A stretch of DNA of 64,000 nucleotides from Tricharina praecox (GCF_024521635.1 NW_026250403.1:1488001-1552000), one strand, 5' to 3'. Counted from the first letter of the stretch, positions 2,758 to 50,333 are shown. Numbers and translations: made by a program. The notes: generated by a model not told the origin, from the letters alone.

Positions 2758-4410
2758 ATGAGTGAGGTCTGTCAAACTCGTCCCTACTCCTAATTCAACC
2801 TTGGTATTTTTGTTTGCACGATTACTGATGTTTGAATTGTAGCTTGAGTGGAACCCCGTTTGGAACACCAGTAGACCCGACAATGGCGGGGATCCCCATG
2901 TCGTAAACGTCAATGCTCCGTTTGATGCCAACGGGTATCACATGGTCTGGATTATGGTACGAACCATGGTGTTTTGATTGTGGTTTCGTGCAGATTTGGT
3001 GCTGAACATTGCGTCTTAGGCTTGCACTGCTGTCGTCTGGCCCATCATCCCAGGCATCGGATTACTATACGGTGGGCTTGCCAGAAGAAAAGCCTCTCTC
3101 GCCCTGCTCTGGCAGTCGTTTCTAGTTTCGGCTACCATTTCGTTTCAGTGGTGGGTCTTTGGATATACCCTGACCTACTCGCCAACCGCTGGACCGTTCA
3201 TCGGCGACTTTCGCCATATCGGTCTGAGGGATGTGGCTGCGAAACCCATCGGTTTCTTGCCGGAGATTCTGTTCGCCGTCTTCCAGTGCTTCTTCTGCGT
3301 TGCCACCGTGCAGATCATGATCGGCGGTGCTCTTGAGCGTGGCCGTCTCGTCCCTTCGTTGGTCTTCTCGTTCATCTGGGCAACCGTTGTATACTGTCCC
3401 ATCGCATGCTGGACGTGGAACTCGAACGGATGGTTGTACAACTTACCATCACTTGATTACGCTGGTGGAGGCCCCGTTCACATTGCATCGGGAATGTCGG
3501 CACTAGCGTATGCTCTGGTCCTCGGAAAGCGTAAGGAACGCAGCGTCAAGCATCGTCCTCACAATGTCACGATGGTCTTCCTGGGCACCTGCTTCATCTG
3601 GTTCGGCTGGCTGTGCTTCAATGGAGGATCGACTCTTAACGCGACTGTCCGTGCGATGTATGGAATACATTTGGATGCTTGAGGTTCTATATCTGACAGT
3701 GGAACAGGTACGCCATGTTCAACACCAACATTGCCGCCTCGACCGGTATTATGGGCTGGGTATTGACGGACTACTTCCGCAAGAACGGCAAGTTCTCGGT
3801 CGTCGGTGCTTGCGAGGGTGCCATCGCGGGCTTGGTTGGAATCACTCCTGCCGCCGGTTACGTCCCCGTCTGGTCTGCTGCCCTCATAGGATTCGTGACC
3901 GCTGCTGTCTGTGCGTCCCTCGAGGACGTCACTGACTGGATCAATATCGACGAGGGGATGGATGTGTTCAAGCTGCACGGCATTGGCGGCATTGTCGGTT
4001 CCATCTTGACGGGAATCTTCGCCCACTCCGATAGTATGTTTCTCCCTCCGCCTTGATTTATTCTATTTTTAACGCCTGTTCCAGTCAGCATGCTCGACGG
4101 CGTGACCAACGCCCCTGGAGCCGTCGACGGAAACGCCATTCAGATCGCCTACCAGCTGGCAGACGTGGTCTCAATCTCGGCCTATGCCTTCACCGCCTCG
4201 GCAATCATCCTCTTCGTGATGAAGTACATCCCCGGACTTTCCATCCGCGCACCCGAGAAAGTCGAAGTCATGGGCATTGACGCGCACGAGTTCCATAACG
4301 AGGAAGTCGGCGACTGGGGAATGGTACAGAAGGACCATGATATCCTCGGAAGCATGATGATCTCTCCGCCCAGAACTCCGCAGGGCGAGACGGTTGATAA
4401 GTCTGCCTGA
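2758..4410 (+). CDS. Ammonium transporter (Amt/MEP family), multi-exon
   Basis: Motifs DYAGGGPVHIASG, WFGWLCFNGGS, GAIAGLVGITP and HGIGG are spread over spliced ORFs. ATG at 2758, first intron 2767..2842, stop at 4410. Confidence 0.95.
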
Positions 4411-9897: not shown

Positions 9898-10179
9898 TCT
9901 GGATATGATTTCGGGTTCTGGCTTATTGGAAAAGTAGGGCCTACTTGGGTATGATCTATAGAATGGACTTTGGGTTTTTTTGTTGCGTACATAGAGAATT
10001 GGTTTCTATGGTTCTTGCCCTGTGCTGGTCACAAACGGGGTAACCTCGGTGGCATAAGGAACTTATGCACATTGGTTGCGTTGAGCACGGGACGGACGGG
10101 TGAAGCAGCATCATAGCCCATCACCCAAACTTTTGTTTTAACCACAAGCCAGATTTAAATACGCCCAATAATCCCCAAT

Positions 10180-12134
10180 CTAATCGTCGAAAGTGATCTT
10201 CTTCGCCTTGACATTTCTGTAGGATCATATAATTAGCACTGTATGCATCAAGAGCTAGCAGGGCAGGATAAAACAAACCCGTCGCTCTCCCTGTAGAATG
10301 CACCGTACGCCGAGTGCTCCTTCTTCTTCACCGTCGTTCCGAACTTCAGCAAACTTTCTGGTACGTCCTGCTTAGCCGCCTTCAGGATGTTCACGAGCGC
10401 TCCGGAGTGTGCCTATATCTGGTTAGCTTGGCGGTGCTATGGGGCGGCAATAGCAACTGACCTTGTCGTGCTCGGTAAAGAAGGTGTACGCCATTCCATC
10501 GGCACCGGCACGTCCGGTACGTCCGATCCGGTGAACGTAATCTTCGATGGTGAGGGGGAAGGTGACATTGAGAACGAGCTTCACAGCCGGGATATCAAGA
10601 CCTCTAGCGGCCACATCTGTCGCGACCAGCAGGGGGCATTGTCCGGACTTGAACTGTCCCAACGCCTGCGTACGTTGTGGCTGACTGAGATCACCATGGA
10701 TACCAGCGACTCTACAGCCCCTTGAGCGCAGGAAGCCCTCGATCCTGGAGGCTTCCTTCTTGTACAAGCAGAAAACGAGGATCCTGTCGTCCTTTTGGGC
10801 GCCAGACTGGTGTTGCTTGATCAGCTGCAAGAGGCGTTGCTCCTTCGCGCGCTGGTCGATGACTTCGACGGTTTGCTTGATACGCACGTTGGCACGTAGG
10901 TCGTCGCGCTCGCCGATGGTGATCTTGATGGGCTTTTTCATGAAGGTTGCGGCGAGCTCGCGGACGGATTGCGGCCAGGTGGCGGTAAACATCAGGGTTT
11001 GGCGGGTCTCCTTCGACGGGCAAGCGCCAATGATGCGTCGGATATCGTCCTCGAAACCTGTAAAGTACCATCAGCATCTTTTACCAAGGGTGACGGGTGG
11101 GAAAGCTCACCTTTGTCCAACATCCGGTCAGCCTCGTCGAGAACCAGATATGACACTTTGCTCAAGTCCGCAGCTCCCTCGTTGATCAGATCGTTCAAAC
11201 GTCCAGGTGTGGCAACAATGACCTGGGCAGTCCTGAGCTTCTGGCGCTGTTCGTCCTTCGGCACACCTCCGTAGAGACAGACGGCACGCAGGCCAGCATC
11301 CTTGGAGTACTTCTCCAAGACCTCGAAGATCTGCATCGCCAATTCTCTTGTCGGCGAAACAGCAACAACCCTCACGCCGAGCTTGTCCTTCTTGCCGGAC
11401 GCAGCCAGTGCCAGAACGTGGCGCATGGCAGGAACAGCGAACGCCAGTGTCTTTCCGGAACCAGTCTCCGCAACACCGATACAGTCGTGTCCGCCGAGTG
11501 TGAACGGCCATGTAGCGGCCTGAATCGGCGAGGGAGTCTTGAATTTAGTGAAGTCGAAGTTGTTTGGTGGCAGGTGGGAGAACTCTGTGATAGGGCGCAG
11601 GTTGAGCTTGTGAGGATCATCGACGAAAACGCCGTGCTCCTTCAGGAAGGCCTCGATAGTCTCGTTGGGCAAGGCAGTGAGCTCGGCGCTCTGAGTATAA
11701 CTCGCCGTCGAGCTAGCAGCTGTCGCTACCAGCATCGGGGTGTGTGTAGGTCGCGCCGGCTCTACAGGAGCATCCGTACTCGACTCGTCTTTCTCAGCAG
11801 CCTTCTTTGCCTCCTTCGCGGCCTTCTTCGCAGCTTTGCGCTCCTCCTTGGACAGTTTCGGCTCAGTCGCCTCGTCTTCTGTCACCGTCTTCTTCTCCTT
11901 CTTCTCCTTCTTCTCCTTCTTTTCCTTCTTGTCCTTCTTGTCCTTCTTCTTCTTCTCCTTCTCCACAACCAGCGCCTCCACGGACTCCGGCGCACCAGCG
12001 CCTATCACGACATCGACAACGCCGTCGCTCTTCTTGCTCTTACTCTCCGATTTTTCTTTCTTCGTCTTCTTCGCCTTGACTACCACAGGGGCGCCAGCCT
12101 CGGCCTCGACATCTTCAATTGGGCGTTTCGACAT
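10180..12134 (-). CDS. DBP3: DEAD-box RNA helicase DBP3
   Basis: Lys/Glu-rich N-terminus with KKEK repeats, [35 protein letters not shown], and C-terminal [17 protein letters not shown]...KITFDD. Three introns. Confidence 0.93.
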
Positions 12135-12578
12135 TGCAGTGGGGCGGTGGTGGTGGTGGGGGATGCGGGATGGTTGGTTCGCAACTGGCGGGACCTGTGT
12201 TTTTAGACTCGATATCTGGCGGTTGACTTTTTTTCTGTCGCGCGTAGATCAAGCGGACTAAGCCGGGCTTGGCGAACAAGGTTTTTCGAGGGTCATGAGG
12301 GTCACTCGGCGGGATTCGGCTTTGGGTGGATTGCTTTCGGGCCGGTGGTAGTTAGGCCCTTTCCGTAGTACTGGTGAGAGAAAACGGCCAGGAGAGTCCT
12401 GTGGGTGGAGCAATATACCCACGCCCATAAGGATGGCAAAGCCAACCAAAAATCTACGAGCCGAAACTAGGTATCTAAGTAACTACAGGATGGATCGCCG
12501 GGCACATGTCTACTCTACTACACTTATGTTACCGGTGCATGTGGAGGCCTGTAAGCTGTTGTCGCATCTACAATATTT

Positions 12579-12957
12579 CAGTGTTCTCCATCGTCTGGAC
12601 CGGACGGACGGTTGCAAAAGTTATCCGTCAGGTCCGAGGTAGTGCCGGACGGGTCGATCCCCGTCCAACGGTGGAGGACGGTCGTCCAAGTGACGTGAAT
12701 ATGATTCGGCTGATTGATGATTTCTTAGCACCGATACCCTACGCACCACCGCGTCAGTTCATCCCTCACCGCTCCACAAGCTGTGAAAAGTAGCAGTATT
12801 CTGACTCGGACGCCCAAGGTGTGGCGCCTGGCCCCTATCACAGCGCTCTAGGCTCCATATCTCACTCGGACACCCAAGGTCCACGCCCGAAATCAGGTTT
12901 TTGCCCATGGCTTGGCGGAAGGACGTCGACGGACGGACCGGACGATGGAGAACACTG
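12579..12957. mobile_element. Non-autonomous TIR element (MITE), hAT-like ends, 379 bp
   Basis: CAGTGTTCTCCATCGTC at 12579 and its perfect reverse complement ending at 12957, extending with mismatches. Internal GGAC/GTCC motifs. Flanking 8-mers caatattt/catcgttt match at 5/8. Confidence 0.75.
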
Positions 12958-14169
12958 CATCGTTTGGATTTACGGTTTTACTGACCGGCGTAACTATACT
13001 CGAGCGTAGAGTGCTTTTCACCAGCTTGTCCACAAGCCAAATATTCTCGTCGATTTACGGTAATCATCCCCTCCACGAACAAAAACGCCAGCCAGATACG
13101 ACCGTAGGGAAACTGCCCATTACCCCCCATAACTAACGTTTAGACTCGCAGTTGCGTTAGCCGGCCGTACGTGAAAATTGTCTCCCGTCCTTTCCCGAGC
13201 CCGAGGTGACCGTGACAGTGAGGCCGAGGTGCGGATTGGTGTAACACAAGTTGAGGTATGTATCGTGGGCGACTTTCATGTGGCGGTATATAACTCGTTG
13301 CTATTGCATTCATAATCAAGGCTTCAATGGGCCGTCTGTGTCTTTGATCCAACTTCCAAGATTCATGAGTAGGTGAAATTGTTTCAGTGTTCCGTGTCTC
13401 CCCCAGTACGGATGTCGGGCCCGATGCGCTGGCTCCTCGTGCTTCACATATTATCTGTGCTCGGTAACTCTCCAGTATTGAATCTAGTCTTTTATTTGTT
13501 TTTGTTTAATCGTTAATTGCTTGCGACCTACATTTGTAGACCATAGCAATACACACCCCGCCTCCTAACTACAGTCCAACCAACTTTCGTCTCTCGGCCT
13601 GATGAAGCTCCCACCGCCCTCCGACCCGACCTTTCCCCAAGTAAATATCGAATCTGGCTTTTTCGATAACCGCAAATTCTGCCATACTGCATCATCTCGA
13701 GTGACGACCTATGGCCGACCTGCAGTTCCAAATTCCAAATTCCAATCGGCCATATGTAATATGTAGTGTGACACCAGCTGACCTGAATCGCTCCAGCTGG
13801 CAAATCCCGACGCATCCGTAGCCATGTGTTTACGCGCACGGCCTAATTTAATTAATTATTTTATTTTTATTTCTGCCATTTCTGTTCTGCATTGGTATTC
13901 GACGCGCGAGCCCAGTTTTTACTCATTCACTCACTCACTCAATCAATCAGTATTTATCCCCCTGAAGTCGATACTGAGAGTGCGCCGCCGGATTCGGCTT
14001 TCGTACTCCCTTCCAAATCCCAAATCCCAAACCCGCAACAAGCGGCCGCGGGCGGACCGACTCGGATTGTTGATTGTTGTTGGAGCTTGAGCAACGACAT
14101 GTACCGTCTGCACTGTATGTGGCTTTTTTTGGCGGATGCGGGCGGATGATCCACTCTTCTCTTCTCCAA

Positions 14170-14556
14170 TAGAGGGATTTTGCAGTCGAGTTGGGGATGT
14201 AAGTTGGCTACGATATTAGTGCAATTTCCCGTGTCGAACCCAAACTTCAGAAAAAGAGGTTTTGCAAATCCCGGGTTGGGGATGAGGATAGTATGGCGCT
14301 ACCAATGGGACTTACGCAAGCCAAGCTCACCATTTCAACGCTATTCCTCTGCCATTCCTTATGTGCCCTAGAAGAGCATGTTTACTATTCCCAACACAGC
14401 CAACTATAACTTTTTAGCGGTGATTACAGGTTCGGGTTGCAACGCCAACCTGTGGAGTTTGGGATGTGTTGTGGTTATGTAAATTAACCGGTTGTCCCAG
14501 TTAAACCCCATTTCTCATCCCAAACTCGATCCCAAACCCGTTGCAAAATCCCTCTA
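14170..14556. mobile_element. Non-autonomous TIR element (MITE), 387 bp
   Basis: TAGAGGGATTTTGCA at 14170 and TGCAAAATCCCTCTA ending at 14556 form a 15-bp perfect inverted repeat that extends imperfectly. Recurrent internal CCCAAAC/GTTTGGG/GTTGGG motifs. Confidence 0.75.
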
Positions 14557-14794
14557 ATGTATCGTCCATCGTCGCAGCAAGGCGGCGAGGGCGGTGAGGG
14601 ACGAGGGCGGTGAGGGACGAGGGACGAGGGAGCCAATTGGTCGAAACTTGAAAGACATTTACATTTATCCTGGGGTGGGAAAAGGATTTCGCTAAATATG
14701 AGAATTAGATTGTCAGACCGACCGATCTGGACGGTGGAAATGGCACCGCTGGACTTGGGACTCGGGAGGGCGAGTATAATTAGGCCCTGCAGAG

Positions 14795-16021
14795 TAGAGG
14801 TCCTCAAACCTTGCTGGGTGACCTGGCCGGCTAGGTGATTAGGTGTTTCTATTGGTTTGGCGATCTTTCAGGTTTCCCGGCACCGCTATGGTTGGGGACG
14901 CCTATAACCGGAGTAAATTGCGACATTCATTTTGGCTGACAAATCACGAGTGATTATAGTGTGTCTACGCCAAAAATGGGGGTTAATAACTGCGCCGCAG
15001 GCAATTTTTCGAACACAGAGCAAGTAATTTTCGTAATTGTGAAGATTTTTGGGCCGTATGGCCCCCAATTTTGACCTATTTGCGTGTGTTCTGAGGAGGT
15101 CCAAGTCGAATAGCACTCATGCGCGAGCTCAGTTGGGGTGAGCAAGGATCAATTGGCGCTAAGGCTTGAATACGGCTCATTATCCGTCACTCGTATTATC
15201 GCTTTATGAAATTAAAAGAGCGCTAGAGCCTTAGTGCATGCTATTGTTTGCGACATTCCCAAATCCTCCCCATACAAATTAGTTTTTTTCAACCCGCTTA
15301 AATTAATTCACCACGCTTTGTATTTTTATTTCGCTTCTATAGCGACCTACTTTAACCCTTCCTCTATCATGCTATAGAGCTCTTTTAATTTTACTGGGTG
15401 TTGTGCTCCAGCTCAGAAAAAGTCGTCTGGGTGACTTCAGGAACTCTAGCTCGCCTCTAGCCCGCCTTTAGTTTGCCGTAATGGGTAGGTGGGTTGTGAG
15501 TAGTTTCCGGGATTAAGAACTAGTGTATCTACAAGAAAATTTGTGCTTGAGTTGCCTGATACTCCAACATCCGCGCGCAAACTCCATTTTCGAACCCGAT
15601 GATGGCGAAGAGGATGTGCAACTCAGCAAGCGACGGAGTGTTACACCCAGCAAGCTGGCGATATACCTCATACACATGGGAATACATTAGTATCGGTACA
15701 GATACCATTGGCCTTAGACTATTGGCAGTTGCCCAGGAAGCATTGCAAGAGTTAATCAACTCGCACAGTTGGAGTCATTCAAGTAATGACTCTAGTCACC
15801 GAGCAGGATTGACTCCAGTCAGCGGGCAGGAGGACTGGGTGGTGTAGAAAGGGCTCAGAAGTCAGGGATGTACCCTGGATGTACTCGGAGCTACTCACCT
15901 GGCCAGCCCCGCAGGGCAAGGTCCTCAAACCCGAATTTCATGGCTGGACATCGTTATTGGTCAATCTTTCTTGATGGGTTTCCAGCCGGTCAGATCACCC
16001 GGCAAGGTTTGAGGACCTCTA
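14795..16021. mobile_element. Internally deleted DNA transposon, ~1.2 kb, with ~40-bp TIRs
   Basis: TAGAGGTCCTCAAACCTTGCTGGGTGACCTGGCCGGCT at 14795 matches the reverse complement of 15984..16021 (TAGAGGTCCTCAAACCTTGCCGGGTGATCTGACCGGCT) with 3 mismatches in 38 bp. An internal partial TIR copy lies near 15919. Confidence 0.8.
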
Positions 16022-16943: not shown

Positions 16944-19613
16944 TATTGGCAGCTCCTGGTACATACCCAGCTCTGCACTCGTTCTGCGGATAGCTACCGG
17001 TAGGTATTGTACTAACTAGCACCTACATATTTACCGATAACCATGTGGCTGCTATGGCCCCTTTCTCATCATTCGTTTGTGGCGCGGGCCGGGCAAAGGA
17101 TGACATGCAGAGTTCATCTGCTGCATGCACTGCATTATGGACCATGGCTGCAGCGGCAAGATCACGGGTATTGGCATATTCGTGTATGTAGTAGGTACAC
17201 TACAGTACCGCAGTCAACCATGAACGGCCCACGGGCCCGTGGACACTCGCCAGCTTCGTCCTGCGCATCAGCATTCCTCCGAAGTTGCGCGGCGGGGGGT
17301 GGGGTGGGGTGAGGCGAGGCCATTCACTTCCAGCTGTTGACGATCGAAGTTGTAGTTATGTAGGCGCTGCGCAGAACACAACGAGGCGGGCGGCAGCTGT
17401 TGGACTCGTGGGTTATTGGCCCCTTCGTAGCGCTGGATGGACTTGAAACCGTCAACTGTACTAGTACTAGCAGTTAGCCCTGTGTGCATGCTATACGTGC
17501 CCTGGATCATGGTTGCATCCCGCCTGGGACGTCTGATGTGTGCCTGAAGATATTCCTTGCCCGAGGACGATGCATCCGCGATGAATGGCGATGACAGGAG
17601 GACGAGGGGGAGGGGTGTGAGGCAGCTCATCTCATTTCACCGTTGTCAGCAGGTAGTCGAGGCCAGCCAATCACAACTGACCGCAGAAAGGGACGTTCGG
17701 TTTCCATAGAGAAGGTAGGTAGAGATGTAGGTAGCTTCCAGGCTGATATCGTCACGGCTAAGCCGTTTTTTCTGCTTTTTCCTCCCCTTCCTTTCTTTTT
17801 CTTCGCGCTGTCTTTGCATCATGAATATTCATCATCGCGCAAAGCGAAAGCGAATGCAATAGTGAAAGTGAAAGTGCTAATTCCGCTGCCAACCGGCTCG
17901 AGTCTGGATCGATCGATCCAGTGACCAGTCGAAAGTAATGTCGATACTCCACCAACGCACAACGTTAAATAACTGACCGAGGTATCTACTCACTTATCTA
18001 TAGATGTATCCACTGTCCAGAGCACAACCACGTCTGTCCGCGTAATAAGACCCAGCAAGCCCGACAGCTGCAACCGCGCCACTTCGCGCCCTCGGTCGGT
18101 ATACATGTGGAATGGTGTAGGCCCTTTGCATAGGTACATGCCATCCGACTTCCCACATGGTATGTATGTCGGCTGGAATGGATAATAAGAGGCAGAAGAG
18201 GCTTCTTCTTCTTCCTCTTCTTCTTCTTCCCAAGCTGCGCTCCGCCTTCCGCTCATCTATCGCCTCGCCTGTCCCAGCCATATCCCCCAGATTCCGCATC
18301 TTTCGATCCTGACACGACTCCGGCCGGAACTGTTCTGCAATCAATCACTCAATCCACTCGTCCCCTTGCCTCTGCCTCTGCTTCAGTCCCGATACCTGGC
18401 TCAATAGCACCGATCGATAATGCTCGTTGTTTCGCCTTGATATTCTTCTCGACATAGCAAGCATATCCCGCCATCTCCCCCCAATCGCACAGGCAAGCAA
18501 TCCGAACAACCGTCGATCGTTTGGAATTCGCGAAGTTCCACTGGACAATCTGAGACCGGAATCCCCCCACTCCCCCCTTCTCATATCCTCTTGTAGGTTG
18601 AGACCGTGCCGACTTCCTTTTACAATTGCGCCCCCCGTCGTCGCCGCAATTGGCGTCACTTGGTCAGAGGACATATCATCATCCGTACTCCGCTCCTCCC
18701 CTACTCATCCTTCACTACCCGACCCGACCTGCCCAAAGAGGCGCAGGTGGTGGTAGATCTAGTTATCACATACTACTAGAGCAGTAGTAGCATCTCGAGT
18801 CTGGTCCGGCGTGCGTGGTATATCGAGACTCGACCAGTGCGAAAGAAGAAGAAGAAAGGAAAGAAAAAGGGCCGGCCAGAAGAGAGATAGAAGGAGAGAA
18901 AGAGAGAGAGCGCCGGGACCGAGACGGAGGGACAGACCGAGTGAGGGCAAAAGACAGAGACGGAAGCAGACGCGCAGGCGCGGAGACGGAAGCAGAGACA
19001 CACACAGAGAGAGAAGCCTAATCAGCTCAGCTCTAGTGACGCAAGTGAAACCCCGAGGTACGATGATGTTATGGACCCAGCTGTGAGGTCGGTCGGTCGG
19101 TTGGACTTAGGGACTAAAAAGAAGAAGTGAAATCCGCAGCGTGGCCAATACGGTAATCGACGTAAGTTTTGCAGCCAGGCCATCACTTGCATCCGCCCCA
19201 ACTGTTGCTGCTTCTCAGCTTCAGGGGTTCCCGTGCGTGGCCCGGGCGTTCAAAAGAGACAGAGAGAAAGAGAGAGACAGCTCTCAGAGAGAGAGAAAAG
19301 AGAAAAGAAAAAGAAAATACAAAATACAAAATACAAAAAAAAACGAAAAAAAAGAGTCCACCCTCTCCGTTGGTTCTAGCTCCCTCTCCAGTCAAATCAT
19401 CCTTCATCTCCAAAATCGCTGATAACCCACAGAGTTCCATACCGTCCGCCTGCTGCCCAACACCGAGAGGTCAGGTCTCAGGGGGTAGTTAGAACGAATA
19501 TCTGTGTAAGCCACGCTATCGTCGTTCCACCACTCACGTTCTTCGGGCCCCAACGCCCCCGGAAGGAAAGACCCAGCTTCTACCCAATTGAGCCCCAGCG
19601 AAGTCCGAAGGGA

Positions 19614-22600
19614 ATGGTGCGCTCAAGCCGAGTCCCTCCACCTACAGCAGTAGCGGCAGCATCCTCATCTTCGTCCTCTGCGTTCCCCTCATCGCAGCCG
19701 TCATCCACTGACTTTCATCATCACACCCCGCAGGGACCTCCGGGGTCCACGGCCGATCTTGGAAAATCCAACAACCCAGCGCCTTTCCAAAGGGGACTGC
19801 CGGAAGGCTGGAGTCTGCCAGAAAGACCGCATACGAGACAGGCAGGTGAGAGCAGTCGAACACCAAGGGGACCGCATCGCAGGACTTCGAGCCTCGTATC
19901 CAGCAACACCACCACCACCACCACACGGAGCAGCTGCGTCGACCTTGGCCGCACTCCAGCGATCGCTACAGCGACGACTGCCGTGAAAGCCCGGCCGGTA
20001 TTGCATGTGAATCCCAAGAGTGTCTCGCGTACCAGTCACTCCGTGTCATCCTCGCCTCTACGACGGAACCCGCACCCTCCGAGCACCAGCTCTTCGAATA
20101 CGACGCCATCGTCTGCTACTGCTGTTGCCGTTTCAACTGACAGTTACCTCTACTGGAAGCAGGTACCAGCTCTGCCGGTGACACCATCGTTGCCTCCCGT
20201 TCTCCCAGACCTTAATCTACCGCGACCCGAAAGCGACGATTTCTCGAAAATCCCGGGAATCACGACATCGCCTCTGCTACCACCGTACCAGGAAGAAAGC
20301 ACTCCTAGGACACACGCGAAGACCGAGCCTACACCGCCGCCGCCTCCACCGCGCGTTCAGCCGGGTTCTTCCACGCCGAGTCACGTTAGAAGCGGATCGC
20401 GTAATAGATCACAGTCTCAAAAGGCCATGTTGGGATTCGCGCTGGAAAAAGCCCATACGGCGGTCACCTTGGACAATGCGGGGAACCTTGAAGGGGCCAT
20501 GGAGGCCTATCGTGATGCTTGCGCATTGTTGAGTCAGGTCATGAACCGGACTGGCGGGGATAACGACAGATCAAAGCTTCAGGCAATTGTAAGCACCTCA
20601 GTAGATCATGCTTTTAGGAGTTGGGGACGTGGCAAAAAAAAAAGGGAGAGGAGAATACAAGGCTTGAAATCGAGGCGTGATTGTGAATGCTGATTGCGAT
20701 TTTCGAACCAATAGAAGGATGCCTATATGGAGCGGATGAACGAGATACGAGCAATGCCGCCTCTTCCACATAAGGAGTATGAACGGAGTCTTCCTCCGCG
20801 CCCTGTGACGGAAGAGTTCACGGATGGCGCCAGCTTATACACTGTTGAAGACGATGAATCGACTCTTGTGCCTTCCACTGCACCCTCGATAGACGATCGT
20901 TACGGCAGCCCTATACGAACGGCGGTGCCGCCGCGGCGCGATTCCTTGTACACGAGCCCGGATGGTGTGTCGGAAGAGCGTTCGCATCCTCCTCCGCATC
21001 CTCCTCCTCTACCGATGTCACGCAACATAATGGCGCATAATTTCGTTCCGGCACCATTGTCGCCTGTGCGGTCGATTCGCTCACCGGTATTGGAACCTGT
21101 ACTGGAGCCAGAGCATGACCTTGGGTTTGACATGGGGCTTGGTCAATCTCTACCTGTTCCTGGAAGCAGGGAGTCATTCACATTCGGTGCTGCCGCTCTG
21201 TCGCCACGGTTTTCTCCGAGGAAGGCTGTGGATTATGGCATCCAGCGGTCATCGTCCGGCGCCTCCTCGAGATCTTCCAGGTCATTGATGCAAAGCCATT
21301 CGCGACAGGCGAGTGAAGAGGTTTCAACGTCGTGGCTGAACACCATTGATGAATCTGGCAGCTCTGTTGGCGAGCCATCGCCTCTTTGGACCAGGAAGTC
21401 GGTTTGTTCACCGGAGCCAATAGGTCCGGCGGATAACCTGGATGACGATTTCGACGCGCAACTCGACGCGGCCGTTGAGGCGGCGTACGACGAAGGATAT
21501 GTGATCGACTATTCCTTCGAAGATACAGATTTTATGCACCAAAGCCCGCGGGAAAACCTTGAAAGTGCGAAAGAACGGGTACGGCAGGTGGAACTCGAGA
21601 TGGAGTTGGAGATACAGAAGGAGAGGGAGAGGCGCCTGAGGATTGAAAAGGAGCGGATGTTCATCAAGGCAAAGAGGGAATCGGATGTCGATTTCTACGA
21701 CGACGCCGATGACGACGAGGAAGATGACGAGGACGACGATTCCGAGGAGGAAAGAATGATGGTCGAGGAGATGACCAGAGGGTACACTCTGGACTTCGAT
21801 TTCGATCTCGATACGAAGACGGCTCTACCCCGGGAGTCAACCTCTACGCAGTTTTCGGACGGGACGTTGGCAAGAGGTTCTTCGTCAAGTGGCTATTCAT
21901 CGGGCACTACATGGAATTCCGGGCATATGACTACAAGCATGTCTTTGACAACAGTTGATGAGACTCCAACGACTCCTCCACCATTGCCCCCTCCTGTCCC
22001 ACCGGAGGATTTAGAACATTTAGATATTGGCCCGTCGCCAACCATGCCTCCACCTCCGCCACCGCCGTCAAACGGAATCAAACACCCAATTATTGCTCCT
22101 GGGTTGGCCATAACTGGGCCTGCCGAAATTGCACCTGGGATTGACTTACCCAAACCGACTGGAATCACCCCCGGACTGACCGTAAACAAGGCCATCGGCG
22201 TGCGAGGCCGCAGACTTTCAAACCTGTCCGAGCCTGTGGAACCGCTCACGATCGAGACTTCAAGCACATCCAAGTTGGCGACCATAGACACGAAGCCAAT
22301 TCCCACCACCGTGGTACAGGGGCCATCGCCATTGGCCACTGCAGCAACAGAACAGCCACCATTACCGCCAATCCAACCGTTGAGCATCCCCCCAAAGTCA
22401 CCCTCGTATGATGCTTCTAGGCCTGGTACATCTCACGACCAGGACACCGACACCGATGCTCCCCTAACAATGAAAGGGGGCAGGCCGCTATCGCCCCCTA
22501 TTCACGAACATGGCGGGTTTTCGACAGCACCCCTGCAGAAAACTTTGTCCAACGAAATCGCGATGGCATCGGGGCCCGAATCACCGGCCCGGATAGGGTA

Positions 22601-43000: not shown

Positions 43001-44131
43001 GTTTGCTGCAGCGCCGGCGGCCGTAGCGGCGATGAGAGAGAGAGAGAGAGAGAGAGTAATTTTAGCCCTACTTAACACACGTTCCGTCTCTGCGCTCAAT
43101 GCGGGAATGCTCAAATACCTTAGGTAGGTACTCGAGTGCGATTCTGTCAAGATCTTGCCAGCCAGAAGTTGGAACCCTCGATCATGATTCATATATCGAT
43201 GCTCAAGTTGCAACCCGTTGGAGTGTACGCCGATTACGGTCCCGTTAGTAGCCACAAGGTGGGTAGTTCGACCCCCACAGTCTCGGAAAGTGGTAGTCGA
43301 CTGGCTTCGACTGTACGGTAGTCCGGGCGGCAAAATGTTGGACGGACTGACTACACACCACCCTTCAATTTTATGGACTGGATAGTCCGGACAGCAGTCC
43401 GGACTCCGGTCTGGACTATCGGGAGCACTGCCTGGCCCCTTGTTGTGATTGTTGCGTGTTCAGGAAAGGGGTTGTTCAACGTGTGGAACTTTGGGATACA
43501 CGGACTCAGACTCGGATTCGAAGGGAGGGTTCCGTCCAGACTCCAGAATGGCTTCTGGAAGCCTCTTGAAGTGCACTGGAGTCCAGGTGGCAAGGCGGTA
43601 CAACGTGCGGGAAAGGCGTTTTTTCACACCTTGTAGGACGGTATGTAGGCGGCTTCGTGATGTACATGCCTCAGGAATGAACCTGAAGGAATTGCCCCTT
43701 CGGCCCCCTGCCGTGGACCGTGGTTGCGACCACGAGCACGAGCACGAGCATGTTTTTCTTCCGCCCCGCTGACGGACTACGGTGTTACATCTTGGATTCT
43801 TGAGCAGATGTAGGCTCTCCCGCATAGGAGTGAGAATTGAGCAGAGGGGGGAAAGATGATGTGAGAGTGATGGTGGCGTGTAACGGAACGTGCTTCTCCG
43901 TCAGGGAGGCAGTGGTACGTACTCATTGTTGTATTGGCACTCAAAGATGGCTGTCGAGGAGTGTGTTGGCAACTTGGCGTGCGCTACTCTGCCAGCATCA
44001 ATGCACTCGGACGGCATTACTGTCGTATATACCTCACAGGACGGTAAGTATCAATTAGGTACTTAGCTAATGTCGATATCTCATATCTCGTATCTATCTC
44101 TAGAACATACTATGTACAGTAGTCTATGACT

Positions 44132-45222
44132 CTATGTTAATGTTTTGCAAGTCTCCACCGCCTCCATTTCCCCCTGTTTCCTTCTACCAACGGCCGCCCT
44201 TCTTTCCTCCTCTTTCCGCCTCCAATGTACCAGCGTCAACTTCAGATGTACGATGAGCAGCCCCAAGAAAACAATAAACACCGCACCGACAATCCCTACA
44301 ACGCCATATATTGTGATCATCGAGAGCTGATAGCCAACCCCCTCCAGCGCCGAGCCCTCCTGTGTCCCCTGCGCCGTTCCCAGCGCCACCTGCAGCGCCG
44401 TCAAGATCACCGTGATGTACGCAAACACCAAGATCAGCCAGCCCAGCTTGCGACCAAAGAAGTGTCCATACTCGGTGTAGATATAGTGGTATCCACGCAT
44501 CATCTCGCCCGAAGTGAGGCGGTAGATCCAGTTGAGGCGATCACATCTTAGCTCGCCGTAGACGTAACGTTTATTCAGCTGGTCGCGGGCGACCAGGTCG
44601 AGGTGCGCACGGATACTCCCCGCAAACGCCGCCCACTGCGGCCACAGCATGTCCGCCGGCAGCAGTCCCCGCTCCACCGCGATCCGGAAGTCGCTCTCGT
44701 GCAGGATCATCTCGACGTAGGAGGCCAGGAGGCCGCAAGCGCTGGCGTGCAGCTCTGCCGCCGCCGGCGTGCACAGGTGCGCGGCGAAGAAGTTGTAGTC
44801 CATTAGGAAGAGTGGTAGCGGCTTGATGTAGATCTTGCCGTGCTGGTGCACGAGGTGCAGGTCGGTCTGCTCGGCCACGACGATCTCGCGCTCCATCATC
44901 CGCTGTCGGTGCAGCTGCCGGATGTGGCCGGCTCGTCCTGCGAGCCAGAGGTAGTCGTGCACTCGGTTCAACCGTGAGACATCGAGCTCGGCTGTGAGGT
45001 GGCTGGATAGTGTGTGCTTGGGTATGAAGATGCTGCCGGGGAGCTCGATGTGGTCGCTCGAGTGCACCGGGAGCTCGGGGATGTTGGCGAATGGTATGCT
45101 GTGTGTCGCCGCGAAGGGAGGGAAGAGGTGGGAGGCCGGCTGTAACTCAATCCGCCGTTAGAAAACATCCGGTTGTTAGATTCGGGATGTCTGACCTCCA
45201 CGGATATCATGCTTTCCAACAT
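44132..45222 (-). CDS. DUF6601-like protein with two C-terminal transmembrane helices
   Basis: ELDVSRLNRVHDYLWLAGR, LHRQ...REIVVAEQTDLHLV...IYIKPLP, RYVYGELR.DRLN.IYR and FAYITVILTALQVALGT match my recollection of DUF6601. Short first exon MLESMISVE, intron ~45195..45140. Confidence 0.75.
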
Positions 45223-45416
45223 GGCTATCTCTGCGCAAAAAGGTAACTATAGTCTATATAGTAGGTACGTGCTGAAACGATTTCGGTAGATGATGCTTAA
45301 GGAGAGGAAGATGTTGATGCACGATCTGGAGGTTTGGGGCGCACGCGAGGGGATCCGATCCGAAGGCAGTCGGAAGAAGAAGAAGATGTAGTTCTTATAG
45401 TCGTCCCAGATGAACT

Positions 45417-45517
45417 AGAACCTTCCTCGTGAGCCGTGCACAAACCTCACTCGCCGGACAAACCTCACTCGCCGGACAAACCAGAACCTTCCGCGTGGGC
45501 CGTGCACAAACCTCACT
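45417..45517. repeat. Compound direct repeat in the divergent DUF6601/NLR intergenic region
   Basis: A 35-bp unit AGAACCTTCC(T/G)CGTG(A/G)GCCGTGCACAAACCTCACT occurs at 45417 and 45483, around an 18-bp tandem ACAAACCTCACTCGCCGG x2. Confidence 0.85.
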
Positions 45518-46037
45518 TGATCAAACACGCCGCTCCGACAACAAAGGCCTTACGGGCCGCAACAGAAGACAGCCGCGGAATGGTAGAAGAAGAGAGAGTC
45601 TGGAAGGGAAATGTACCGATGGCAGCCCTTTAGAGCTCCATGCCTTCGTCCTAAATAACAACAACCATCCTCCTCCCCTATATCTCGCCGGTCGTGAATT
45701 AGCGGCAATGGGAATGGTGCCGGTACACTGCTTAACCCGCTTAACGATTCCCAAGAATAGCCGTTTCATAATGCTTGCTGGTTGAGGTGGTTGCCGCCTG
45801 CTGATTGGGCCGGCCCGCCAGGGCGGCAATTAGTGTGCGCGTTGGCGCCTGATTTCGCGCAACCGCAACAGGGGCACTGCATGAAGAGTCCCACCAGTTG
45901 ACTCGTCGACAAGCTGCGGCGCGTAAAAGTCGTCACACACATATCCAAGTAGTCGTATATATGTAAGGGTTCGGCCATCAACTTTGAATTTTGGCAATTG
46001 AATTCGAAATCCACAGCTGAGGCCCGATACAGTGAAC

Positions 46038-49000
46038 ATGAAATTCCCGCTAGACTTGAGTAATGAACGCTCTACCGGAAACGGCGCCGAAGAGCAGGAA
46101 GACAACTCAATGTACACCATGAGGATAGTGGCTCCCGGAACTGGGGTAGACGGCAACGAAGAGCCAATAGTCGAGTAAGCGCCTAATTTTCCGATTATTC
46201 GTATAAAGTCAGCCTTTACTGATTGTGAATAGCATCATCGGAATGCAAGGGCTCGGGGCCGATCCTGATACCACATGGCTTTCGAATGGAGTGCACTGGC
46301 TGCGAGACCTACTTCCACAAGATGCGCCTCGGGCGCGTATAATGGCCTGGGGGGATGACACCAAGTTCTTCAGCAAAGCACCCAATGCAAAAATGGAAGA
46401 CTACGCAAGAAGAGCAATTTTGGGGACTTTTTGCAAAAGGCGAACGAAGCAAGTAAGGATGATTACGTTGGTGGCACATAACAAAGAGATGGATTTGTAA
46501 CGGTTTCTAGGAACGTAGGAGACCAATCATATTTATCGGGCACTCCTTCGGGGGAATCATCACCAAGCATGCAAGTAAATTCGGATGGATTATGTACATA
46601 CTTCATATTGGGACGATTAAATTCTAACCACAATTCATAGGCATTAATCGAATCAGCTGATGATTCGTGGTATAAGAACATCACCGACTGCACCGTCGGA
46701 ATCATTTACCTAGGGGTACCGCACTACGGACTTGCGATCCTGCCGTTTGTGGCTGGAACATTTGCTAGAATTTTAAACGTCTTCACCAGGTCGACTCCAG
46801 ATGGTTTATTCCGAATTTTGACAAAAAACTCGTCGAAACTGCTTGATCTTGAAAAAACCTTTGCCAGCAAGGTTCCAGCCTGCAAGACCACCTGTTTTTA
46901 CGAAACGAGGATATCAAAGTACAAAGTACTCGTAGGTTATATAGAAACCCCCGTGAGGTCTTCGTCGCTGACTCAAAGATTCCAGATTGTTCCGAAGGAA
47001 TCGGCAGTGCTGAAAGGTCAAGAGGGTATTGCATTGGATGTGAATCACTCGGGCTTGAACAAGTATGGATCCAGAGATGATCCGAGCTATGCGGCTGTCC
47101 GTGATGTCATCTTAGGATGGATACAAAGCCTACCGCCACTCATAATAGCGGCAGCTGAGAAAGCGACTGATGCCGATGAGGCATCTAAAATTCGGCCGGA
47201 TACTAACGATGATCTGAGTGAGCAGGAGGACAAAGGCATACAATGGTTCGTGTTTACCGCTCTTACTCACCTCGAAGATGACTGACGGCAACTTACCTCG
47301 TCTCCAAATCAGGGAAAGTGTTGCTCTCGATGAGGCCCCGGAGTCATTTTGTGTCCCTAACGACACGCCGGCGTATCGTTGCAGCCCATTCATGGGTAGG
47401 GAACAAGATATCCAGCGATTACACGACTTGATTAAAGACTGTGATGGAGAGCCCGTGGCACTGCTCGGTGCTTCGGGAATTGGCCAGACTCAACTGGCCC
47501 TATAATATGCTAAACAGCACGAAAATGTTTATCCGTATCAGGTTTTTGTGAACTTGGATACCAAAAATCTGTTTTACGAGTTCATATACTGGATGCTCGG
47601 ACTTTCTACGGGTTGGGAGTGGGAATTCCGCGTCGATATCGCGGAGCGTTGGATGAAGAACGAACACGGGGAGAGAAAGGGGAACTTACTTCTGATACTG
47701 GACGGAGTTCCCGAAACAATGCGGCAGCTTGTCGCTCAATTCCCTCTGGGTATAAGGGAGAGTCAAATCTTGATGCTCACCTCGGACAGAGTAGGGGATG
47801 TGCGCGAGAAGTTCAATATCACCAGATGTTTGGAAGTGGGACCTTTGGAGAATGAGTCGGCATTGGCGATATGGTCCGACTTGGTGGGCAAAGAGATCAC
47901 TGGTGCAGAACTTCAAAGCGCCAACAGGATGCTCAAAATTTTGGACAAAAACACAGAGGCAATCGTTCCAACTGCCGAGTATATGACGAAACATCAACTC
48001 GGCTTTCAAGAATTTGAGAACCAAATCAGTCCGGACGGTTTAGATTCCTCGGTAATTTCTAGCTGGCACTCTACTCCATGTTATCCTATCTAACCAGAAA
48101 GCAGAAATCTGAACCTGGGGACGGTGATAACGCTCTGTCGGCGGCGATACTTCTGGTCCTCGGGCGGCTATCTCTACAGAGTGGAGACCTGCTCAACATC
48201 TTATCTTTCTTTAATCCCAACTACATCCCGGTTGATATGCTTCACAACGGTGCGGTTCGAGCCTTTACCGTCACATGCTCAGGACAGGATGGACGGCCAT
48301 TAGATCCATGGCATACGCCGATAAAGGAACTTTTCGAAGTTCTCAAAATGCCTACCGATCTTCATCGGGCTCTCGGGAAGCTTCAATCACTCTCGGTGAT
48401 TGAGAAACCGTTATGCGAAGGCGATACTGTGCCTTTCATCCGCTTTCATCCACTCTGCGGAATACCCTCATCCTCCTGGTTATACCCCGATGAGCTTCCC
48501 TACTGGATCGAAGCCGCTGCAACCATTGTTCTCGGGGCATTGGAGAAAGGGCTAGAGGAAGCGGGTGGCAAAATCTGCGCACGAAGCTACAGGCTACGAC
48601 CGCATGTGCTCTCTGTTTTGAAACACATGAAAACTGATCCTATACGCGAATACCAACCGTTCTTCTCGCATATTCTCGCTGAACTGGGTGCTTTTCTGCG
48701 GAGCTTCTGCGATTACTCGGAGGCTCTTGACATGTTTCAACTCGCGGCTTTTGCCAGTACGAACGATCGCAATATAGGTCCCAACGATCCATACACACTG
48801 CACCTTCAAGAGCAACATGCAAACCTATGTGTAAACCTAGGCCAGTACGAAACCGCAGTAACGATACACAGCGAGGTCCTCCAGAAGCGAAAGAAATTGC
48901 TGGGCTGTTTTCATCCGGACACAATCCGCGCCTACTGCAATATCGCGACGCTATCGGCTGCCCGCGGAAGGTACGAGGAATCGGCGAAGTCGTTCAGGTG

Positions 49001-49975
49001 GGCCGAACTTCTGATGAGATGTCTGTCGATGAAACGGATGTGTCCGAGACCATTCGAGCTTTCTTACATCCCGGAGGGCCTTGCACTCGCCTTGTGGAGG
49101 CTGGGTCAGGATCGAAAGGCCCAACGGTTACTCGAAGGAGCCCTCAGGTACGGCAGGAGGCCTTGAAGTCCTCGACAGAATACCGGGATAGTTGGGATGG
49201 TCTTCAACCTCTAGTCTCTATTTATTGCATACAGGGGCAGTACGATAGAGCGGAGAACATCTGCCATCAGATACTCCAACAGGCCGAGAAGAGATACGGT
49301 GACGAGCACTCAGAAACAATGCTTTTGAAGCTACATCTTGCGAATGTCTTGGTCGACCAGAGCAAAATCACGGATGCTAGGGAGATCGTGTCTTCCTCGA
49401 AAAGATCACTCGAGACGTACCAGGGCTCTTTCGATCCCACCATGCTCCTCGCAAAGGAACGTCTGGCGGATGCATTGGAAAAACTCGGCGATACTGAAGA
49501 GGCTGGAACATACTACGAGAAGATCTACCAGGAAAGGAAGACGCATTTCGGACCAGCCGATCACACCACATTGCGCGCGTTGGAGGGAAGTGCTAGAGTC
49601 AAGGGAAGCCTAGGATTGGTCGATGAAGGACGAGATTTGTTTGTTCGTGTTATCCAAGGGAGCACCGATACGCTTGGAAGGACACATCCCCGGACGTTGG
49701 AGAGCTTGCAGACGTACGGGGAGTTTCTAGTGCAAAGTGGAGCGAAAGAGGAGGCATCGACAGTATTTACTGAAGTACTATCAGTACGGAAGAAGAAACT
49801 CCGGAAAGGTCACCCAGACACGCTCAGAACGATGCAACACCTAGCCAACTGCACCACACAACTTCATGGGTAATATCCTTCTTAAGTTACGCATCGGATG
49901 TCAGTCAAGTAGCTGACAACCCGTAGCTCGACGAAGAGGCGCACAACGCTCTTGTCCGCCGAGGTTTCCGAGTAG
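46038..49975 (+). pseudogene. Fungal NLR: SesB-like alpha/beta hydrolase + NB-ARC + TPR repeats; hydrolase intact, NOD/TPR part disrupted
   Basis: HWLRDLLP, RPIIFIGHSFGG, GIIYLGVPHYG and NHSGLNKY (hydrolase). FMGRE, GASGIGQTQLAL*YA and LLILDGV (NB-ARC, in-frame TAA at 47503). LGxxHPDT-type TPRs with a frame switch near 49150. Confidence 0.85.
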
Positions 49976-50333
49976 CACGCCAGCTGTGAAAATTCCCCTG
50001 TATGTCCCCTTATTCCCATCTTTATGTGTTGTTGCTAATGACTTGAAGATCTTTCAAACCAGGCCATCATTACCATGGGTCCTATAATTAGAGCACACGA
50101 TGTTGGGTGCTATGAGCAATACAGGTCTCCTACGAGCTCTCGATCTGTAGCAAGCGGTGGTGGATCTAGCTGTAATATTTATGTATGAAAGTGTTGGAAT
50201 ATATACCTAGGTAGACAGATGATGATATTCTATTCGATACAGAAAGAAGAACCTATCGTCCACGGCGAAGACCTCTATTTAAGACTGAGACGCCACCTAA
50301 GGTTGGCCGCTCACCAGACTTCGCCTGGCCATC

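Follow-up and report, generated by a model that had tools for sequence, protein, structure and literature searches.

DUF6601 genes recur head-to-head with sesB-like hydrolase NLR genes, and Tricharina praecox carries a copy of the pair with a decayed NLR

A stretch of 64,000 nucleotides from Tricharina praecox (GCF_024521635.1 NW_026250403.1:1488001-1552000), referred to below as the window, was analysed around positions 44132-49975, where two genes diverge from a common spacer. Gene A, on the minus strand, encodes a protein of the Pfam family DUF6601 (PF20246), and gene B, on the plus strand, has the architecture of a NOD-like receptor (NLR) in which a sesB-like hydrolase is followed by an NB-ARC switch and tetratricopeptide repeats (TPR). 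The locus is best explained as a representative of an ancient and widely conserved pair of divergently transcribed genes in filamentous ascomycetes. In the window, gene B is a transcribed pseudogene and not an intact NLR; gene A, judged by comparison with a syntenic relative, is intact and under purifying selection.

Recurrent pairing across DUF6601 loci

Metagenome contigs were scanned with a DUF6601 alignment, resulting in 79 loci that were grouped into 45 clusters (at least 90% nucleotide identity of the DUF6601 part). Following tblastn with the exons of the window, relatives of the first hydrolase exon were found directly upstream of DUF6601 in loci where the NLRs are otherwise unrelated. 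A hidden Markov model built from these pieces matched 21 of the 79 loci, representing 14 of the 45 clusters, with one match each. Every match was located 523-1448 bp from the DUF6601 match and none elsewhere in 792,962 nt. The hydrolase lies upstream on the opposite strand, head-to-head with DUF6601, in 13 of the 14 clusters and downstream on the same strand in one (L033/L060). Clusters with at least 1.5 kb of upstream flank or a hydrolase match were regarded as assessable; on this basis 14 of 27 assessable clusters were paired, 13 were unpaired and 18 could not be assessed. As a position control, the flanks of the 45 representatives were compared: all 14 matches fell within 1.5 kb of DUF6601 (94,177 nt, 25.8% of the flank) and none in the other 271,165 nt (P = 5.7e-9 under uniform placing). 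The same result was obtained with a wider model made from 40 NLR N-termini, of which the other NLRs in L003 (two), L066 and L071 match only the NACHT part. The adjacency of DUF6601 and NLR genes beyond chance, proposed as a check by an earlier reading of the window (the sequence-only reading), was thus observed.

The hydrolase domains of the partners match the Pfam families DUF676, Abhydrolase_6 and PGAP1, and what follows them varies. NB-ARC and TPR domains stand behind the hydrolase in the window, L003 and L077; NACHT (Pfam NPHP3_N) is followed by ankyrin repeats (ANK) in L033, L050, L066 and L071 and occurs with no recognised repeats in L025 and L040; in L028 ANK alone was recognised. The paired hydrolase gene of L036 (8647-9330) is apparently alone, with no switch or repeat domain after it on its strand. 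For L032, L046, L058/L069 and L068 the contig ends too early for switch and sensor to be read. Since switch and sensor vary and the hydrolase is constant, DUF6601 seems tied to the effector domain. The balance tilts slightly towards DUF6601 acting with the hydrolase effector at the membrane, a functional coupling that we infer from this pattern. A cytosolic domain whose fold has no solved relative, anchored by a two-helix hairpin, would then be paired with a sesB-like (DUF676/PGAP1-type) serine hydrolase NLR, and DUF6601 could be the anchor, co-effector or substrate through which the activated lipase-NLR acts.

The variation among partners also bears on a guard/guardee arrangement, in which DUF6601 would be a host target or decoy watched by the repeat domain of the NLR, and damage or binding of non-self would activate the NLR. 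DUF6601 shows conservation, is bound to the membrane and also occurs without a partner, as a guarded housekeeping-type target might; close linkage between a receptor and its guardee would be advantageous, and the partner NLR evolves fast (37-55% identity to the syntenic relative L003 in most parts, vs 80-92% for three flank genes). Across the pairs, however, the constant feature is the N-terminal hydrolase and not the sensor, sensors being TPR or ANK and switches NB-ARC or NACHT, and the hydrolase gene paired in L036 seemingly has neither switch nor sensor. A guardee, the second role that had been offered for the DUF6601 protein besides that of a membrane effector, therefore fits poorly and is improbable.

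Another explanation supposes no functional link: the two genes may be kept together by a compact bidirectional promoter, or both families may duplicate in variable NLR-rich regions. Following a Pfam scan of 200 open reading frames (ORFs) of at least 140 aa from 27 representatives, NLR-type domains were found in 11 (L003, L025, L028, L033, L040, L050, L066, L068, L071, L075 and L077) and in none of the other 16 (L004, L005, L016, L019, L030, L036, L038, L042, L046, L047, L054, L057, L058, L063, L065 and L073); this set differs from the 27 assessable clusters, which include L032 and L037 and leave out L004 and L038. Other NLR or HET genes do occur in the paired loci L003, L033, L050, L066 and L071, as an NLR-rich setting would predict, but these other NLRs lack the hydrolase and lie farther from DUF6601. 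The unpaired loci are not NLR-rich, only L075 having NLR-type repeats among the 12 of 13 unpaired clusters that were scanned. Distance and orientation are the same in 13 of 14 clusters, though the DUF6601 copies are often only 35-60% identical.

A quick maximum-likelihood tree was made from 81 DUF6601 rows (the 45 representatives, the window and 35 database proteins). Rows with and without the pairing are intermixed on it, with at least nine state changes among 28 scored rows, and the pairing label is no more clustered than in shuffles (339 of 500 as low). Pairing would thus have been lost many times, which suits the absence of a functional link. The distances between DUF6601 proteins and between hydrolase N-termini are correlated (Mantel r 0.68, reached in 0 of 5000 permutations; r 0.51, reached in 19 of 5000, when the two closest pairs are left out), as would follow from inheritance of the pair as one unit, but shared ancestry alone would also suffice. 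Taken with the fixed geometry, an unlinked pair is unlikely, if somewhat less so than a guardee. On the tree, named proteins from Chaetomiaceae, Hypocreales and Xylariales stand beside paired loci; together with the pezizalean window, this suggests a wide taxonomic range for the pairing.

Several observations weigh against joint action of DUF6601 and the hydrolase. No hydrolase neighbour was found in 13 of the 27 assessable clusters, so DUF6601 does not need the NLR, and obligate coupling is further opposed by the persistence of DUF6601 beside a broken partner both here and in L074. L074, closely related to the paired L071, has about 3 kb of unrelated sequence in place of the stretch that contains the hydrolase exon (L074 683-3742 vs L071 8155-9023), and DUF6601 and the rest of the NLR are kept; from this alignment it is a second case of partner decay. 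The loci are metagenome contigs whose clusters may not represent phylogenetically independent events, the distance correlation can arise from shared ancestry alone, and the enrichment was measured from the DUF6601 side within the flanks of DUF6601 loci. A search, itself weak, for fused DUF6601 proteins among those of 598-2000 aa scored none, which likewise counts against the coupling. A complex prediction for the NLR N-terminus (304 aa) and DUF6601 (379 aa) of L066, in which their own alignments were unused, scored 0.00 and is no evidence either way.

Apart from these loci, a search of the representative library with the L025 hydrolase gave 4349 relatives at E ≤ 0.001. Of 150 listed relatives 35 were scanned: 28 are NACHT-type (NPHP3_N), mostly of 950-1550 aa with one of 2091 aa, two have ANK repeats only, one (P0199) hydrolase families only, and four gave no match. 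In many partners of the NACHT type, the hydrolase is preceded by a conserved extension of some 110 residues (consensus start VYRLR..LP), which has no Pfam match and is absent from the window NLR and L066; examples are L025 4178-4498, L050 8882-9217, L028 8645-8923, L022 4-249, and residues 1-110 of P0081 and others. In L022, one of the clusters that could not be assessed, this extension lies 284 bp upstream of DUF6601 at the contig end. L065 contains two DUF6601 paralogues (2365-3381 and 10001-10954) that are 7.6 kb apart, with no NLR-type domain between or around them.

Decay of gene B in the window

Gene B (46038-49975, plus strand) was modelled from RNA contigs and their spliced translation. 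It starts with the ATG at 46038, and its TPR frame ends with the TAG at 49973-49975 after splicing of 49870-49926; the exons are 46038-46174, 46233-46452, 46511-46570, 46641-46931, 46986-47245, 47313-48051, 48105-49869 and 49927 onwards. Runs X2 and X3 yielded one contig each (3735 and 3759 nt) extending from 46012/46022 to past 50182, with introns at 46175-46232, 46453-46510, 46571-46640, 46932-46985, 47246-47312, 48052-48104, 49870-49926 and 50000-50048. Because their contigs are spliced, X2, X3 and a further run, X5, were taken as RNA-derived, the runs carrying no RNA label on record; contig depth is unsuitable for ranking the expression of the two genes. The transcript goes past the stop, beyond 50182, with an extra 49-nt intron in the 3′ region (50000-50048), and intron 46571-46640 in the hydrolase region is of the GC-AG type in both RNA contigs.

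The hydrolase part comprises exons 1-5 (46038-47245, plus strand) and carries its nucleophile elbow, GHSFGG, at 46538-46555, with the Ser encoded at 46544-46546. Our own hydrolase models match 46207-46497, 46511-46624 and 46641-47282 (6.8e-13, 9.6e-10 and 6.2e-5) and nowhere else in the window, and the same models cover ORFs of other loci that score above the Pfam DUF676 cut-off of 20.3 bits (L066 25.6, L068 26.0 and L040 21.3 bits). Scanned singly, the window hydrolase exons gave no Pfam match at E 0.1, the domain being split over five exons. The label sesB-like is based on the published description, as given in passages of PMC12258605 and PMC4986451, and on the DUF676/PGAP1 matches. A decayed NB-ARC exon follows at 47313-48051 (plus strand; E 3.9e-4), for which no relatives scored among longer proteins, and then a winged-helix and TPR exon at 48105-49869 (plus strand; TPR_12 at 3e-24 and 1e-14, TPR_10 at 7.4e-16 in Pfam). 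The C-terminal repeats expected of a fungal NLR are thus present as TPR.

Lesions were read against L003, part of a 62-kb metagenome contig that is collinear with the window (CTLH, Utp11, SAGA-Tad1, NLR, DUF6601) and whose DUF6601 is 69% identical to gene A over the best aligned segment. At 47485-47487 (plus strand), gene B has CAG (Gln) at the position of the Walker A Lys, reading GASGIGQT vs GLPGIGKT in L003, and so lacks the lysine expected of a functional P-loop switch. Directly after the P-loop, an in-frame TAA is found at 47503-47505 (plus strand) where L003 has CAC (His). This TAA is codon 387, and the only long ORF from the start codon ends at 386 aa. The spliced message consequently encodes the hydrolase with GHSFGG, then GASGIGQTQLAL, then the stop; beyond it, the message continues with NB-ARC-like sequence and then winged-helix/TPR sequence up to a second stop at codon 923, with further TPRs in another frame. 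This second stop results from a 1-nt deletion relative to L003 at 49146-49147 (two bases in the window, three in L003), giving a premature TGA at 49164-49166, and the TPRs go on in the following frame as far as 49869. None of the three lesions is found in L003, which reads GLPGIGKTQLALHYAKK at the P-loop, with the Walker A Lys and the His, and LLEGVLAVRQEA in one frame at the site of the frameshift. Read through the stop (with X), the NB-ARC domain of the window reaches 20.2 bits, below the Pfam cut-off of 23.5, vs 31 bits, above the cut-off, for its L003 orthologue (L003:7446-8216). A 44-nt intron at 49148-49191 that would heal the frame was rejected, an RNA contig piece covering 48104-49868 unspliced.

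No single open frame runs through effector, switch and repeats in the spliced message. The TAA is covered without difference by the RNA contigs of X2 and X3 and a contig of the DNA run X1; X3 differs from the window at 47536 and so represents another haplotype. As two RNA runs and a DNA run share it and one of these differs elsewhere, the stop is not a private error. Gene B is therefore a transcribed pseudogene that can give at most a 386-aa hydrolase stub. The hydrolase-NB-ARC-TPR order recognised by the sequence-only reading held, and the intact receptor it had assumed did not. It follows that no working two-gene immune module, as had been put forward for this locus, exists here now.

For the window alone, it might be argued that gene B still makes a working full-length NLR through read-through and frameshifting, or does so in other strains. 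The gene is well transcribed, its TPR part past both frame lesions is 70% identical to L003 with no further stop, and NLR pseudogenes are often strain-polymorphic within a species, according to passages of PMC13449251. Such a product would nevertheless have to overcome three separate lesions, including loss of the catalytic Walker A lysine, as well as a TAA common to the two RNA runs and the DNA run; no recoding signal was seen, though none was searched for. We regard it as very improbable. In the same source, NLR pseudogenes with stops and frameshifts are described as common and polymorphic between strains in Podospora, so the decay of gene B is ordinary.

The inactivation looks recent, since most of the divergence of the NLR took place under constraint: in comparison with L003, the TPR half has a synonymous divergence (dS) of 0.79-0.92 and a ratio of nonsynonymous to synonymous divergence (dN/dS) of 0.22-0.43. 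For DUF6601, dN/dS is 0.29 at dS 0.70, and for the flank genes dS is 0.62-0.93. Identity of the NLR to L003, mostly in the range given above, is higher in the last TPRs (70%) and in a 20-residue exon (85%). The NLR of Tricharina praecox would thus have lost its switch and sensor recently, through the Lys to Gln change, the nonsense codon and the frameshift, with DUF6601 kept.

Judged from its sequence, the NLR of L003 looks intact. Given the collinearity, the NLR was already there in the common ancestor of the window and L003, which answers a possible objection that it might be an independent insertion beside a syntenic DUF6601. In the 5′ half of the NLR (window 46038-48051 vs L003 7476-9367) the proportion of synonymous differences is 0.68-0.79, near saturation; it is 0.42-0.53 for the flank genes and the TPR half. 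The 5′ half could therefore derive from old allelic lineages or exchange with a paralogue and not from plain orthology.

The surroundings had been described as a block of housekeeping genes. This applies to the right flank, with SAGA-Tad1, Utp11, CTLH/RING and Pam16, but not to the left, where 36-44 kb (about 8 kb) contains no Pfam-recognisable ORF. Between 30 and 44 kb the window has no detectable similarity to L003, so that DUF6601 is located at a synteny break. On the far side of DUF6601, L003 carries two NACHT-ANK genes in tandem (11999-14921 and 17934-19854), which are offset by 4933 nt and have identical Pfam scores.

The DUF6601 protein and the divergent spacer

Gene A (44132-45222, minus strand) encodes 343 aa plus the stop, as supported by Pfam PF20246, a match to P0001 and RNA contigs from X2, X3 and X5. 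Translation starts with the ATG at 45222 and stops at 44132-44134. Coding exon 1 (45196-45222) comprises nine codons and is followed by a 56-nt GT..AG intron (45140-45195, minus strand), the joint 45139->45196 being present in RNA contigs of all three runs, and then by the long exon (44132-45139). The model equals P0001 (343 aa, hypothetical protein, Tricharina praecox), with 99% identity over the exon and the same splice, and the transcript spans at least 44086-45416.

Pfam assigned gene A to DUF6601 at E 2.7e-73 (247.1 bits vs a cut-off of 27; profile positions 3-239/240), and gene A is a full-length member with all invariant residues of a 36-sequence alignment. A soluble N-domain (residues 10-235; 44462-45139, minus strand), supported by invariant columns and an AlphaFold2 model, carries the family-invariant H, K-P-L, G, D, A, R, G and R. 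It is followed by a two-helix membrane hairpin (44243-44446, minus strand) that was placed by hydropathy, with a first transmembrane helix (TM1) at about residues 241-263 and a second (TM2) at about 281-308, and by a basic tail (44135-44242, minus strand; 10 K/R of 35). The Gln of TM1, Q259, is invariant among the aligned DUF6601 members and present in gene A. The reading of gene A as a DUF6601-like protein with soluble N-domain, two membrane helices and basic tail was accordingly borne out. At the nearly invariant Trp of LHLVW gene A has a His, as does the relative P0002. The loop between TM1 and TM2 contains no K/R by the hydropathy/charge reading and, by the positive-inside rule, N-domain and tail would both face the cytosol. 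The invariant polar residues (His, Lys, Asp, two Arg and the Gln in TM1) suggest a specific binding or catalytic site and would make DUF6601 more than an anchor.

AlphaFold2 with 36-42 relatives gave a predicted local distance difference test (pLDDT) score of 89 for the whole protein, with helices at 242-265 and 271-342, and for residues 10-235 a pLDDT of 91.5 and a predicted TM-score of 0.89. Foldseek against the Protein Data Bank with the full model and with the N-domain returned no match with E ≤ 0.001, VIA-align of the N-domain against 48,161 chains reached a best Z of only 2.9, and VIA wide on the full model gave matches limited to the long C-terminal helix. The N-domain is thus a confidently predicted fold with no solved relative among the structures searched. 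Plant DUF247 appeared in the Atlas structure comparison at TM 0.36-0.38, under the bar for a match, and the best score of the Atlas feature comparison (0.75) is a lead only; at most, the model holds a faint structural echo of plant DUF247, the determinants of grass self-incompatibility. When Pfam was run at E up to 5 on 36 DUF6601 proteins, DUF6601 alone was common to all, the rest being scattered membrane-helix noise. No HeLo and no gasdermin domain was found in gene A in the Pfam scans. Some names in public databases are likely misleading, the DUF6601 protein P0035 being called 'succinate dehydrogenase/fumarate reductase cytochrome b subunit'.

The genes are separated by 815 bp from ATG to ATG (45223-46037), in agreement between gene models and RNA contigs and with the spacer of about 815 bp noted by the sequence-only reading, as were its repeats. 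These are direct repeats at 45406-45523 (plus strand): a 46-nt unit occurs twice at 66-nt spacing (45406-45451 and 45472-45517) and an 18-nt unit three times. Within the window they are confined to the spacer (2 matches, 0 expected). A form that is 67 nt shorter (joint 45445->45513) occurs in DNA run X1 and in run X3 and may be a repeat-number variant. RNA contigs skip 97 nt at 45415-45511 (GT..AG on the minus strand, with a short side of 28 nt), which may reflect a 5′-leader intron of gene A whose splicing takes out the tandem repeat. The depth and loose ends of X1 suggest related sequence elsewhere. Rfam gave no match on the spacer. Both RNA runs have zero depth only in the bin 45726-45939, and the contigs of gene B begin at 46012-46022; gene A and gene B probably share a bidirectional promoter, which, from the zero-depth bin, may be shorter than about 300 bp.

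Divergent co-transcription and strict adjacency, with both genes transcribed in the same RNA runs, are also what would be expected if DUF6601 were an antidote that shields its own membrane from the linked lipase or keeps the lipase inactive, similar to a toxin and its immunity gene. DUF6601 is kept here, where a hydrolase-only stub is still encoded, which fits such a role. An effector fused to an NLR is, however, already restrained by its own switch; the 13 unpaired clusters have no lipase to counter; and no fungal NLR module with an antidote is described in passages of the reviews PMC12881547 and PMC5485727. An antidote appears about as improbable as a guardee. DUF6601 may be an effector, a target or an antidote.

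Relation to known systems and meaning of the pair

The partner hydrolase belongs to a familiar class. As described in passages of Dyrka et al. (2014, PMC4986451) and Bonometti et al. (2025, PMC12258605), sesB-like NLRs of Pezizomycotina consist of a GxSxG hydrolase, NB-ARC or NACHT, and then TPR or ANK, as do the NLRs found here. Among the common N-domains, the sesB-like one, a predicted lipase/esterase, is reported there to be alone in combining with every switch type, in agreement with the variety beside DUF6601. It is the commonest NLR effector class in Sordariales and heads about a fifth of ascomycete NLRs, counts summed from passages of PMC12258605 giving 964 of 4613 in Sordariales. In contrast to the pairs described here, the passages of both papers treat a sesB-like NLR as an all-in-one protein and mention no fixed non-NLR neighbour; the window copy is, in addition, a pseudogene. 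The head-to-head pairs in the passages of Bonometti et al. are NLR-NLR pairs only.

Passages of reviews and studies (PMC4986451, PMC9815663, PMC12258605, PMC12881547, PMC5485727, PMC13449251) describe amyloid clusters, gasdermin/protease clusters and NLR-NLR pairs, and mention no partner of sesB-like NLRs. Literature searches and passages on fungal NLRs, with supplementary tables S2 and S4 of PMC9815663 lying outside the search, contained no description of a pairing of DUF6601 with sesB-like NLRs; the pairing thus seems undescribed. Full-text searches found DUF6601/PF20246 itself in a single paper (PMC10512319), where the domain is merely tabulated; no function is recorded for the family. In that table, a 166-aa DUF6601 ORF adjoins a 1014-aa NB-ARC/TPR ORF beside the KK-1 cluster of Curvularia clavata, uncommented; HET, ankyrin and another NB-ARC/TPR ORF are nearby. 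The best match listed there for the DUF6601 ORF, ORF(-4), is named 'subtilisin-like serine protease', likely misleading as well.

The nearest precedent for a lipase working with a membrane partner is the Nectria haematococca ses locus (SESA, SESB, HET-eN) and hellp/sbp/pnt1 of Chaetomium globosum. In passages of PMC5485727, a sesB-type lipase, a membrane-acting partner and an NLR stand side by side, the free lipases SESB and SBP being encoded with the membrane-acting, HeLo-like SESA and HELLP under one NLR, and the lipase does not act alone. There, however, lipase and partner are free, are activated through an amyloid motif, and the partner is HeLo-like, whereas in the present pair lipase and NLR form one protein, a two-helix integral membrane protein of the DUF6601 family is the partner, and no amyloid motif is evident, though no motif model was run. 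Wojciechowski et al. (PMC9815663), in the passages concerned, sought amyloid motifs in short NLR N-termini; the N-terminus of gene B is a folded hydrolase domain. The het-S/nwd2 and gasdermin/protease-NLR clusters, in passages of PMC12881547, are likewise tightly linked two-gene units of an NLR-type receptor and a small membrane-directed protein that recur across fungi. Unlike these, gene A has neither HeLo nor gasdermin, and the N-domain of the NLR is a lipase/esterase-type hydrolase instead of an amyloid motif or a protease of the S8 or CHAT type. There is no indication here of activation by cleavage or templating.

A bolder and rather doubtful proposal sees in DUF6601 proteins the missing executioners at the membrane, or the obligate membrane receptors, that serve sesB-like NLRs; the pair would form a third, non-amyloid and non-proteolytic two-gene death module of fungal NLRs. 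If this were true, an NLR-borne serine hydrolase would act on or through a dedicated two-helix membrane protein of new fold. As to joint action of DUF6601 and hydrolase at the membrane, the decayed copy in the window indicates that the pair can separate with DUF6601 surviving, which constrains models of their coupling. A neighbour gene kept across distant lineages is a concrete candidate partner for sesB-like hydrolase NLRs; the pairing provides a first functional context for the uncharacterised family DUF6601 and extends the gene clusters of fungal NLRs beyond the amyloid and gasdermin types.

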